Assembly: GCA_963664015.2 (NCBI GenBank)
Contig: CAXXLF010000002.1
Span: 480,001-544,000 of the forward strand
Length of the DNA stretch: 64,000 bases
Origin: Candidatus Binatia bacterium
Lineage (GTDB): Bacteria; Desulfobacterota; Binatia; UBA9968; CAXXLF01
Reading direction: 5' to 3'
This document shows, in pieces, positions 2,930 to 27,643 of the stretch. Each line of letters begins with the position of its first letter. Positions within the stretch are counted from its first letter, which is position 1. The notes beneath the pieces are model-generated. The model made no database searches. It saw only the letters and a program-made list of their open reading frames with translations, and was not told the DNA's origin. The translations under genes were made by a program, and so were the position numbers.

Positions 2930-3944
2930 TTAGAAGAACTTCTCGTGAGGGATATGGTTCGCACTCATCCCTTTGCTCAACAAGAGCGCCTGGACATCAT
3001 CGACCATAGGGCGCCCACCACACAGATACGCCTCGGTGCGACTCGCCTCTTTGTCAGTTACCCGCTCTCGAATCAAGTCCGTCACCCGGCCGCGAGCCCC
3101 GTCCCAACCCTTGAGATCGGGCTGAGAGAGTATAATCGGAGGCTCAAACAAGGGATGGGCAGCTGCCAACCTGCGCAGCAAGTCCTGATAAAACAGGTCT
3201 AAAACGTTACGTAATCCGAAGAATAACCGTATGCAGCGGGAGTTCCTTGGTTGCAGCAAATGAAGCAACATGGATTTGATCGGGGACCTGCCTGTGCCGG
3301 TGGCCAATAAGGATCTCCCTGTCGGATTTCTCTTCCAAGCAGATCTCGCCATAGGGACCCTCTACCTGGATCGATTCTCCCGGACGCAGCCGGTGTATAT
3401 AGTTGGAACAAAAGCCGCCGGATACGGCACGCACGCAGATCTCGAAGTGATCCTTATCAGAAGGCGAGGATGAGATGGAATAGGAACGGCGCACGACCTG
3501 GTCGATACCGGGGACCCGGAAGATCATGTACTGCCCCGGGTGAAACTTCAGGCCACCACCTTCCAGGGCGAATCGTTGCTCGCATACCGTCAGCGTAAGC
3601 TGCCGGTACACCTCGATCCTGGCATTGACGACCTCAAGCTCGGCGCGATCCTCAGACCTATGAGCGGACCCGCCAAAGGTAAGGTCTCCATGGGCGTCAG
3701 CAAGACAGATGAGACGATAGCACCCGGGGTCGAAAATATTTTATTCCAGGGTACGGGTCTCGCGAGCCCTAGGATCGCCCATAGACTCCCGACCTTCAAG
3801 AACTTCCGTTGCACAGGTTCCGCAAGCACCCGCCTTGCAGGTAAAGGGGATTGATGCCCTAGCGTCCTGGCATACACCGTAAAGCCAATCCCCTTCTTCA
3901 ACCTCGAACGTGATCCGGTCTTTTTTAAAAGTTATCCGAGGCAC
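2930..3944 (-). pseudogene. 2Fe-2S ferredoxin-FAD/NAD(P)H reductase fusion, disrupted
   Basis: CKAGACGTC, in-frame TAA at 3741-3743, then RRSYSISS, GGFCSNY, EGPYG; frameshift near 3300 into ATGTG..YLCG..EKFF. Confidence 0.8.
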
Positions 3945-25228: not shown

Positions 25229-25882
25229 ATGCCACAAGCTCAGCTCGCCTTATTTATATTCGCTTGGTTTTTAACCGTTCCGCTTCTTCATGCGGACGAA
25301 GGCAAACACGGGAACGAGACTCCGTTGTATGGGAAAGTGGTACGGGCTCAAATAACCCCACCAGGAACGCCAGGAGATAAGATCCTCAAGGAAGGCAAAT
25401 TCCCCACCTTTCATCCATTGATAACCCATTTCCCTATCGTCTTGATCATTGCCGCGATGCCCTTTTATGCCTGGGGAGCGGCCCGTAGGCGAATCGTGTT
25501 CCGACGCTCTGGCATGATTCTCGCCGCATTCGGTTTCTTGGGGGCTCTTCTGGCGGGCTACGTTTTTCATCCTCATACGGAAGGGCTGAGCCCTGCAGCC
25601 CAAGAGGCCCTGTGGAACCATAACTTCTATGCAAGCATGACCCTATACGTGACCGCGATTGCCATTGGCATAGGTGTCCTTACCTGTATGCAACGATTTC
25701 AGGGGTTGAGCTTGCAGGCTACGGCTTCGATATTCTTGCTGTTATCGGTTTTGACGGTTAGCATCACGGGACACTATGGGGCAACACTGGTTCATATATA
25801 CGGGGTAGGCCCCAAGGGAGATTTTCTCTCAAAAGAGCATATTGGAATCCATATCCCCATTTTCGACATAACTCTTCGATGA
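25229..25882 (+). CDS. DUF2231-like His-containing membrane protein
   Basis: HPLITHFPI..H..TGHYGATLV..YGVG. Confidence 0.75.
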   Translation: MPQAQLALFIFAWFLTVPLLHADEGKHGNETPLYGKVVRAQITPPGTPGDKILKEGKFPTFHPLITHFPIVLIIAAMPFYAWGAARRRIVFRRSGMILAAFGFLGALLAGYVFHPHTEGLSPAAQEALWNHNFYASMTLYVTAIAIGIGVLTCMQRFQGLSLQATASIFLLLSVLTVSITGHYGATLVHIYGVGPKGDFLSKEHIGIHIPIFDITLR

Positions 25883-25903
25883 AATCCTGGGAGGAGACTG
25901 GCT

Positions 25904-26380
25904 ATGAAGATTAAAGGTAAGAAGTTAAGGCTGTTATGGTTTTTTGGGGTCCCTTTAGTCGTTGCGATTACAGCCATCGTCGTATACTCCCAACCGGCCC
26001 CGGCAAACCCCACCATCACGGTCTACAAGAGCCCGACCTGAGGGTGCTGCTCCAGCTGGGTGGGTCACCTGGAAGCAAACGGTTTCAGCGTTAATAAGAA
26101 AAATGTTACGGGGGCGGCCCTCATAGCAGTCAAGCGAGAACAAGGAGTGCCCTCAACCCTCCGTTCCTGCCATACGGCAGTGGTGCAAGGCTATGTGATA
26201 GAAGGCCACGTACCAGCCGACGTTATCAAACGCCTGCTGACCGATAGGCCGCCCCATCGGGGCCTAGGCGTGCCTGGAATGCCCGTCGGTTCACCAGGGA
26301 TGGAGGGCCCCAACCCCCAGCCTTACGATATCTTCGCCTTCGACCATAAGGGAGGGATGGAAGTCTATGCCAACCGATAG
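25904..26380 (+). CDS. DUF411/CopG-like periplasmic metal-binding protein, probable selenoprotein (Sec46)
   Basis: GAGGAG RBS, signal peptide, VYKSPT-TGA-GCCSSWVGHL in frame with SCHTA..IEGHVPA..PGMPVGSPGME. Confidence 0.8.
26049..26076 (+). promoter_or_regulatory. Candidate bacterial SECIS hairpin
   Basis: TCCA(gctg)GGTG-ggt-CACC TGGA; GGTC lies 22-25 nt after the TGA. Confidence 0.55.
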
Positions 26381-26600
26381 GGATCGGACTATTGTTCCAA
26401 CTCGTTTTTAATCGACCGCAGGATTACCCCCAAACAAAATTCCTCAACCGCCCTGCCATGGGGCTGGTTTCAGCTATTGATCCAAAACTACAGACAGTCC
26501 GGATTGCGAAGCCACCTCCCCATAAAACACATGGGATAACAAGGGGTTACTTACCGAACTTCTCTACTAAGGCTGCGTACCAATTGGGGGTGGTTCGCTT

Positions 26601-27643
26601 TCACTCCCGCCATATCAATGCCTCCGCGAGGTTGCGAAAATTTAAGGCCGCACTGCGGCTGAGGGTTATGGTTTGGATTCTCGCTTCATTCAAGCTCGAT
26701 GTGACCTGGCCCTTGATTCGGCGCGCATCGCTTTTGATCCTATCCTCGAATGACCGGCCAAGTTCGCTAAAAGCCCTTCGATCGCCTTGGCTCAACTTTA
26801 ACCATTCTGAGAGATTACATAGAATAAAGATGGCGCCACGAAGCACAGGCGGACCCATCCGATATCGGTAGCTAACCGTCCCCACTCGGCCGGTAGGTCC
26901 GTTCCAAGGAACAGTCTGCCATCGATACTCCCCCGTTCCACACCCGAGGGAGCGACCTGTTCCGAGATACCGACCTCGGTGGCACCAAATTGGCGAAACA
27001 AATGATCCGGTAAATTATGGCCCGAGAGATCGGGACCTTTCGTTCCCAAACGAATCTTGCGTTTGCTAAAGAGCCAGTGTCCGAAGTCGGCCATTGCCCA
27101 CGCGAGCAGATGCACTCCAGCCTTGCGATGAAGCCGTTCATTGAGAAAGTCCAATCCGCCGTTACCACGGATCTCCTGGGGAGACCGTCCGGAGACACTC
27201 AAGACCTTCAGTTCGGGTACGTATTTGGGACCCAGGAGATAACTGGGATCACTGAAAAGGATCGGAATATTCCCGTATTTCATTTTTGTAACCCCACTGG
27301 TCTTGCTTACCCTGCAATCGTATTCCTTTCGATCGTAAATGAGCCACTTGGGATATTCCATCTTTTTTCGACCCCGGGTTACATAACTTCTCTCATAGAC
27401 ATACTCCAGGCCAATGGAGCCGTTACTGACTTCCACCGCCCTTTGAACAAAACGTGTTAGAAATAGTTTCTGTATTGTCGACGTGGGAGAAAAGGTTGAG
27501 AGAACCTCGACGGTCCGTTCCGCTTGCCGTGGTGCAGCTATCTGCTGCCGACTTCCCGTTAGAACACCGAGATCGCCACTGCCGCATGATGCCACGAAAA
27601 CCACCATCGCAACAGTAACAATTGCCGTGGCAATGGAACGCAA
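26601..27643 (-). pseudogene. Degenerate TRAP DctP-like substrate-binding lipoprotein
   Basis: Lipobox VASC, F+..V...SNG.I, F..FGA..V.I...V..G+ERG.IDG; frameshift near 26880. Confidence 0.5.

Follow-up and report, generated by a model that had tools for sequence, protein, structure and literature searches.

We find that the UGA at positions 26039–26041 of an intact CopG/DUF411 gene, in a stretch of 64,000 nucleotides from a Candidatus Binatia bacterium (hereafter the window, to whose first letter all positions without a contig prefix refer), is very probably decoded as selenocysteine (Sec). An earlier note on this DNA had proposed that an exported, Sec-containing CopG/DUF411 metal protein is hidden at this site, and that core reading is supported by conservation of the TGA, by a hairpin that follows it, and by Sec machinery in the genome. 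The gene at 25904–26380 would encode one exported CopG/DUF411 protein of 158 residues.

The frame that opens at ATG 25904 reads, when TGA is translated as U, MKIKGKKLRLLWFFGVPLVVAITAIVVYSQPAPANPTITVYKSPT-TGA(26039–26041)-GCCSSWVGHL..., with ...ITVYKSPT directly before the TGA, and it stays open until the TAG at 26378–26380. This TGA is the single one within the 158-codon frame on the forward strand. The ribosome-binding site, start codon, signal peptide, VYKSPT-TGA-GCCSSW junction and in-frame run into a 106-residue open reading frame (ORF) that the earlier note described could all be confirmed in the sequence (Table 1). At the N-terminus, the AlphaFold2 model of the window protein has a helix at residues 6–28, and judging from the sequence a signal-peptide cleavage site may lie near residue 34. 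The note had also expected standard pipelines to truncate the gene; the ORF that is called starts at GTG 26060, and the protein database entry for the window sequence is the corresponding 106-residue fragment (P0002).

Table 1. Features of the predicted Sec-form CopG/DUF411 gene and its upstream neighbor in the window.
Feature	Position	Strand	Details
DUF2231 membrane-protein gene	25229–25882	+	Pfam E = 2.4e-10; ends 21 nt before ATG 25904
Shine-Dalgarno-like GGAGGAG	25890–25896	+	7 nt upstream of ATG 25904; read from the sequence
Complete CDS, predicted Sec-containing CopG/DUF411 protein	25904–26380	+	158 residues including U46; stop TAG 26378–26380
Signal-peptide-like N-terminus, residues 1 to ~34	25904–26005	+	Basic start, hydrophobic helix, ...PAPANP
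In-frame TGA, predicted Sec codon U46	26039–26041	+	Ortholog conservation; aligned with the first Cys of the 6WIS CGCC
U-G-C-C motif, counterpart of the CopG copper-cluster CxCC	26039–26050	+	Alignments
SECIS-like hairpin	26048–26077	+	Single-sequence MFE register; core helix 26056–26062 with 26066–26072
106-aa ORF, GTG start	26060–26380	+	Product reported by gene callers; missing UxCC and the fold's first strand
S-C-H-T motif (C89, H90)	26165–26176	+	Invariant in the family alignment
PGMPVGSPGME loop with M126 and M133 (M-x6-M)	26273–26305	+	Invariant alignment columns; Met copper ligands in CopG/CutG

The read-through protein belongs to the CopG/DUF411 family by sequence and by predicted fold. 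It matches PF04214 (DUF411) with 90 bits (cut-off 27; E = 7.7e-26) and PDB entry 6WIS with E = 1.1e-27 over residues 38–155, an alignment that sets U46 opposite the first Cys of CGCC and agrees with the note's assignment of the TGA to that Cys. All of the invariant family positions are present (C48, C49, W52, H55, C89, H90, M126, and M133), and the CxCC signature of CopG/DUF411 proteins appears as U-G-C-C, provided that the UGA is read as Sec, the Cys analogue. The AlphaFold2 model has a pLDDT of 84.5 and a pTM of 0.74, with low pLDDT at residues 127–133 of the M-x6-M loop in this metal-free model. The top five Foldseek matches of the model are CopG chains of 6WJE and 6WIS (E values of 6e-13 to 3e-12, target TM-scores of 0.81–0.84, 44–45% identity), and the next are ordinary thioredoxins with E values above 0.01. 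None of the NCBIfam models, curated selenoprotein models included, matches the window protein.

CopG-like proteins are described as periplasmic (PMC7558416). Accounts of them also describe a tetranuclear copper cluster bound via CxCC and two Met residues, a contribution to anaerobic copper resistance, and a proposed role in oxidizing Cu(I) and handing copper to cuproproteins, with the Rhodobacter capsulatus protein CutG being partly dispensable (PMC7558416, PMC8456105). The window protein resembles Pseudomonas aeruginosa CopG and R. capsulatus CutG in being a small exported protein with the same fold and the same x-C-C, SCHT, and M-x6-M positions. Unlike in those proteins, the first Cys of CxCC is replaced by a UGA, predicted to specify Sec, with a SECIS-like hairpin behind it; the Sec form is known from sequence, and its gene in the window does not adjoin a copA, cus, or multicopper oxidase gene.

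Linkage to such genes is typical of CopG/DUF411 genes and not obligatory, and there are no copper-resistance genes within ~3 kb of the gene in the window. Its neighbors in the window are GH15, DUF4380, SDR, DUF2231, and SH3 genes and two ORFs without a Pfam match; the ORFs directly downstream, at 26392–26871 (+) and 26798–27643 (−), gave no match to Pfam. The earlier note had pointed to the upstream DUF2231 membrane protein as co-transcribed with the CopG/DUF411 gene, rich in His, and a possible electron partner. The gap of 21 nt and the His content (11 of 217 residues, 5.1%) are as claimed, and co-transcription of the two genes in the window's genome is plausible from their spacing and shared strand. 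That the DUF2231 protein is a dedicated electron partner of the Sec protein is unlikely, with its gene adjoining a DUF411 gene at only one of 86 loci (phmmer E ≤ 0.01), the window's own, and with no neighbor family recurring at more than seven of the 86. Assembled RNA-library contigs cover 25443–25683 and 26147–26374 (X1) and 25725–25930 (X2), and none of them covers the TGA at 26039–26041. The X2 contig spans the junction between the two genes and would favor a joint transcript, but it extends only 27 letters past the ATG and may, like the others, be DNA carry-over; assembled contigs do not in themselves demonstrate a transcript.

Conservation of the TGA was scored in the order to which the window's genome belongs by searching 61 genomes in six frames, namely that of the window and 60 relatives, with 14 genera sampled. 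The gene was present in 17 of the 61 genomes and 10 of the 14 genera: family f1 has it in the window's genome and one of four others, 15 of the 28 genomes from f2 have it, and it was found in none of the 28 from f3. Each of the 18 strong matches in these 17 genomes, two of which are identical copies from one genome, has exactly one in-frame TGA, at 49–60% protein identity. The TGA stands at the identical position in all 18, within Y-x-x-P-[TG]-U-[GS]-C-C, and translation shows a frame that is open and conserved on either side. The earlier note had held that a simple nonsense mutation would leave close orthologs with TGY codons and no conserved hairpin; instead, all 18 strong matches in the order carry TGA, and a hairpin downstream goes with it among the orthologs. 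The two identical proteins are encoded ~1.16 Mb apart in one genome, at G002:C1:3295253-3295726 (L007) and G002:C1:4453733-4454206 (L023), and may represent a recent duplication or a repeated element. A nineteenth, weak match in the order (L024, G045:C33:42180-42518; E = 1.2e-6, 29% identity) is interrupted by both a TGA and a TAG and may represent a DUF411-like sequence that is either distant or decayed. In 400 genomes drawn evenly from the remainder of the phylum, nothing reached E ≤ 1e-10.

Outside the order, the same site holds either TGA or a Cys codon. We scanned one genome per species with a mixed-alignment query, which gave 594 confirmed loci, and retained the 80 best; the codon at the Sec site was TGA in 19 of these and TGC or TGT in 61. 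A Sec/Cys pairing of this kind is typical of selenoproteins. A first motif pattern recognized 70 of the 80 loci (16 TGA, 54 TGC/TGT), and the remaining 10 comprised three TGA loci, all intact, and seven Cys loci. The TGA loci L028 and L015 are one and the same gene and were treated as a single locus from then on. According to their records, the TGA loci come from Gemmatimonadota, Acidobacteria/Vicinamibacterales, Rokubacteria, Chloroflexota, Caldilineales, and Binatia, and also from a delta proteobacterium, Pseudomonadales, and 'Candidatus Fredericiella'. Among 251 sampled Gemmatimonadota genomes, 188 had a homolog, and 15 of the 150 matches listed had one in-frame TGA, counted wherever in the match it fell. 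Two Gemmatimonadota genomes had both Sec and Cys forms among the matches listed. This sample included three unpublished genomes (G602, G662, and G565), none of which is among the TGA matches listed.

Of 8000 protein database candidates that we scored, 7990 were relatives at E ≤ 1e-5. The full-length relatives examined have CGCC, CNCC, or CSCC at the site, and the database holds thousands of full-length Cys forms. Two further entries of 106 residues (P0013 and P0044) resemble truncated Sec forms. One full-length entry, P0005, has Trp at the Sec position (…DPGWGCC…), most likely reflecting a gene caller that used a code with TGA as Trp; entries of this type disguise Sec forms as apparent Trp variants.

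Bacterial SECIS elements, as bSECISearch describes them, are stem-loops just 3′ of the UGA with a G in the apical loop. In Escherichia coli fdhF, the SECIS is a hairpin inside the coding sequence, just 3′ of the UGA, whose loop starts with GGU(C) ~20 nt past it. The hairpin in the window pairs CUGGGUG (26056–26062) with CACCUGG (26066–26072) around an apical GGU (26063–26065). The GGTC that the earlier note placed 22–25 nt past the TGA is found at 26063–26066, and the loop, GGU followed by C ~22 nt past the UGA, is in this respect like that of fdhF. Unlike the fdhF element, the window helix is short (6–10 bp) with a 3-nt loop and no bulged U identified, and its binding by SelB is a prediction. 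Folded alone, the window hairpin has an MFE of −16.5 kcal/mol, no better than that of shuffled sequences (z = −0.08), so a single-sequence fold is uninformative and significance comes only from comparison across genes.

In comparison across genes, the hairpin stands out. RNAalifold predicted a helix at alignment columns 18–23/29–34 for 17 sequences of the order. We scored each gene by its longest perfect stem with a loop 20–30 nt past the first base of the codon. The mean stem was 7.06 bp for Sec forms (33 rows, including a duplicate) and 4.63 bp for Cys forms (54 rows), a contrast between samples that are not independent because 25 of the 32 Sec forms in the tree described below fall in one clade. 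Stems of at least 6 bp were present at the site in 33 of the 35 Sec forms, compared with 15 of the 61 Cys forms, and all seven core pairs were present in 21 of 35 and 5 of 61, respectively, with the Cys forms in both counts taken from the best 80 of 594 loci and with the same dependence among Sec forms. A G lay within the first two loop bases in 32 of 33 Sec rows, one duplicate included. The SECIS-like hairpin with a G-containing loop that the note had described is a recurrent property of Sec forms. The commonest version is GUGGGUG-GGU-CACCUGC, and in some orthologs the register differs and the loop is GGU or GGGC. The hairpin is likewise present in Sec forms that branch outside the main clade (L083, L061, L062, L043, L046, and L087), and two TGA forms, L059 and L045, have weak hairpins at the site.

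Across 32 Sec sequences, 76.7% of cells were paired, compared with 28–49% when the partners were slid. The pair formed by columns 18 and 34 was G-C in 21 of these sequences, C-G in four, and U-G in one. Changes on both sides occurred at three of nine pairs, a number attained in 164 of 500 shuffles; covariation is thin because the helix falls in the conserved W-V-G-H-L codons. Overall folding energies differed modestly (−10.97 kcal/mol for Sec and −9.37 kcal/mol for Cys forms). At the protein level, 31 of 32 Sec forms of the main set have G, V, or S as the second residue past the conserved Trp, whereas Cys forms mostly have E, D, or K there, with G in one of 54, as expected if an RNA structure constrains these codons. 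This one Cys form with G, L054 of a member of the Gemmatimonadaceae, has its Cys codon at 3025–3027 of the locus, in CDCC...WVGHL, and retains a 7-bp GUGGGUG-GGC-CACCUGC hairpin of the type common in Sec forms; SelA was not detected in its genome, which suggests a recent reversion from Sec to Cys after loss of the Sec trait. A search of Rfam gave no matching model, only chance-level matches to snoRNA and SRP models (E = 0.24–9). Downstream of the UGA in the selD gene of the window's genome, there are hairpins of another shape (−13.2 kcal/mol).

The window's genome has SelA, SelB, SelD, and tRNA-Sec. A genome without this machinery would, according to the earlier note, speak against Sec; selA, selB, selD, and the tRNA-Sec gene (selC in the note) were all found. 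The first three lie outside the window in one cluster, G000:C2:1306765-1312057, where selD has an in-frame TGA of its own, and tRNA-Sec lies ~10 kb beyond the cluster at 1322535–1322629 of the same contig. In the order sample, SelA scored above the cut-off in 58 of 61 genomes, including all 17 that hold the gene, and strong SelA matches were found in 14 of 15 and 3 of 3 TGA-form genomes outside that sample. Overall, SelA was present in 34 of 35 TGA-form genomes and in 18 of the 34 Cys-form genomes tested, with sub-threshold matches only in two of the latter and none in 14. No SelA was found in the remaining TGA-form genome, G474, whose completeness is uncertain. Its gene, L083, combines the TGA with a strong hairpin of 9 bp, and its sister in the tree, L084, which shares the phylum label, has Cys; the assembly may be incomplete, or the gene may have been caught amid loss of the Sec trait. 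The alpha subunit of formate dehydrogenase is the most widespread bacterial selenoprotein in a recent inventory (PMC13188914). In the window's genome, no Sec-type form of this subunit was found (best match 85 bits, cut-off 814).

The UGA could be read through without Sec, by near-cognate insertion of Trp or Cys or by means of a SelB-independent local recoding signal. Sec decoding is here a prediction from sequence, P0005 has Trp at the site (most likely a matter of the gene caller's genetic code), and two TGA forms have no clear hairpin, but we regard this alternative as very improbable. Of 80 relatives (best 80 of 594), 61 have at this site a metal-ligand Cys, for which Sec is the natural substitute, and SelA accompanies the TGA form (34 of 35 genomes, versus 18 of 34 for the Cys form). 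Moreover, the UGA is followed by a G-rich-loop hairpin at roughly the spacing familiar from SelB-dependent decoding, and TGA is the commonest stop in the genome: of 1535 open frames that are 300 codons or longer, 563 end in TGA, with TAG and TAA each accounting for fewer. A simple nonsense mutation, leaving a recent pseudogene or a gene from which just the 106-residue C-terminal ORF is made from GTG 26060, might be suspected because gene callers report that ORF alone and because the window hairpin by itself is statistically ordinary, but it is least probable of all given a TGA kept with open and conserved flanks in 18 of 18 matches in the order and found at 19 loci of other groups (best 80 of 594), a 106-residue product that would be missing UxCC and the opening strand of the CopG fold, and SelA in 34 of 35 TGA-form genomes. 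The flanking genes that we scanned (GH15, DUF4380, SDR, SH3, and gluconate-2-dehydrogenase subunit 3) are intact. Genome-wide reassignment of TGA was also considered and rejected, as TGA is a normal stop here, the commonest one, and also terminates the upstream DUF2231 gene.

If the UGA specifies Sec, SelB carrying Sec-tRNA(Sec) would bind the hairpin (core 26056–26072, GGU loop ~22 nt past the UGA) when the ribosome reaches the codon, and the complex would allow Sec to be inserted in place of termination. After export, the thioredoxin-like domain would hold copper by U46-G-C48-C49 together with M126 and M133, and the selenolate would take the place of one bridging thiolate ligand of the tetranuclear CxCC cluster of CopG. 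By homology, the protein would serve in periplasmic copper handling, either by balancing Cu(I) and Cu(II) redox states or by transferring copper. We infer Sec insertion, copper binding, and a benefit from selenium in the form of a lower pKa, a softer ligand, and easier redox cycling. A more specific proposal, to which we give somewhat less than an even chance, is that Sec bridges copper in a CopG-type tetranuclear cluster and that the switch from Cys to Sec was gained or lost several times in soil and sediment phyla as selenium tunes periplasmic Cu(I)/Cu(II) redox chemistry. If this proposal is correct, the protein would contain what is, to our knowledge, the first natural copper–selenolate metal cluster. 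With Sec at residue 46, selenium would occupy a ligand site in a copper cluster whose structure has been solved, and the natural Sec/Cys pair could be used to probe the role of selenium in copper chemistry. Selenium availability would also be linked with copper handling in uncultured Gemmatimonadota, Acidobacteriota, Rokubacteria, and Chloroflexota.

The Sec-form CopG/DUF411 proteins are very probably a widespread Sec/Cys family missed by those selenoprotein catalogues that could be searched. A literature search that paired DUF411 or CopG with selenoprotein, selenocysteine, or SECIS terms showed no report of a Sec-form CopG among the papers listed. A 2026 inventory, whose Table 1 is presented as the most comprehensive and comprises 119 prokaryotic selenoprotein families and subfamilies, gave no hit in a search for the terms DUF411, CopG, PF04214, UxCC, and UGCC (PMC13188914). 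DUF411, CopG, and copper go unmentioned in the main text of the paper on BSepDB (111 families), whose family list sits in the supplement. The inventory does catalogue metal-related and thioredoxin-fold selenoproteins, including the UxC form of the SO_0444-family Cu/Zn efflux transporter, CopZ-family forms, a cation-transporting ATPase with UxxC, and a UGC-containing TlpA family (PMC13188914). Like these, the CopG/DUF411 proteins have predicted Sec in place of a redox or metal-ligand Cys, common Cys homologs, and genes truncated in annotation; unlike these, they constitute a different protein family. Annotation systematically cuts Sec-form genes to a C-terminal fragment without the metal site, and a Sec-aware PF04214 model would correct many annotations.

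We inferred a maximum-likelihood phylogeny for 86 proteins, 32 of the Sec form and 54 of the Cys form, from 132 columns, omitting L028, L023, L024, and the 10 loci that the first motif pattern had dropped. The main Sec clade contains members of several phyla, and the other Sec forms lie among Cys forms. Eight state changes are needed on the tree (bootstrap 5–95% range 6–9), and its well-supported branches alone force two changes between Sec and Cys. A single origin of the Sec forms was rejected, as none of 200 trees from a bootstrap that is not fully settled allows one change. Given the 132 columns, the unresolved forks, and the state of the bootstrap, the safe statement from these sequences is that the Sec/Cys state appears to have changed more than once.

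Two sequencing runs that hold the whole stretch (X3 and X6) also contain a second contig of 1013 letters, at higher depth, that matches only 26021–26070 with four differences. The matching segment begins just 5′ of the TGA and reaches into the downstream arm of the hairpin. This contig is probably the Sec-form gene of another organism, and its match suggests that, at the nucleotide level, the UGA and the hairpin are the most conserved part.
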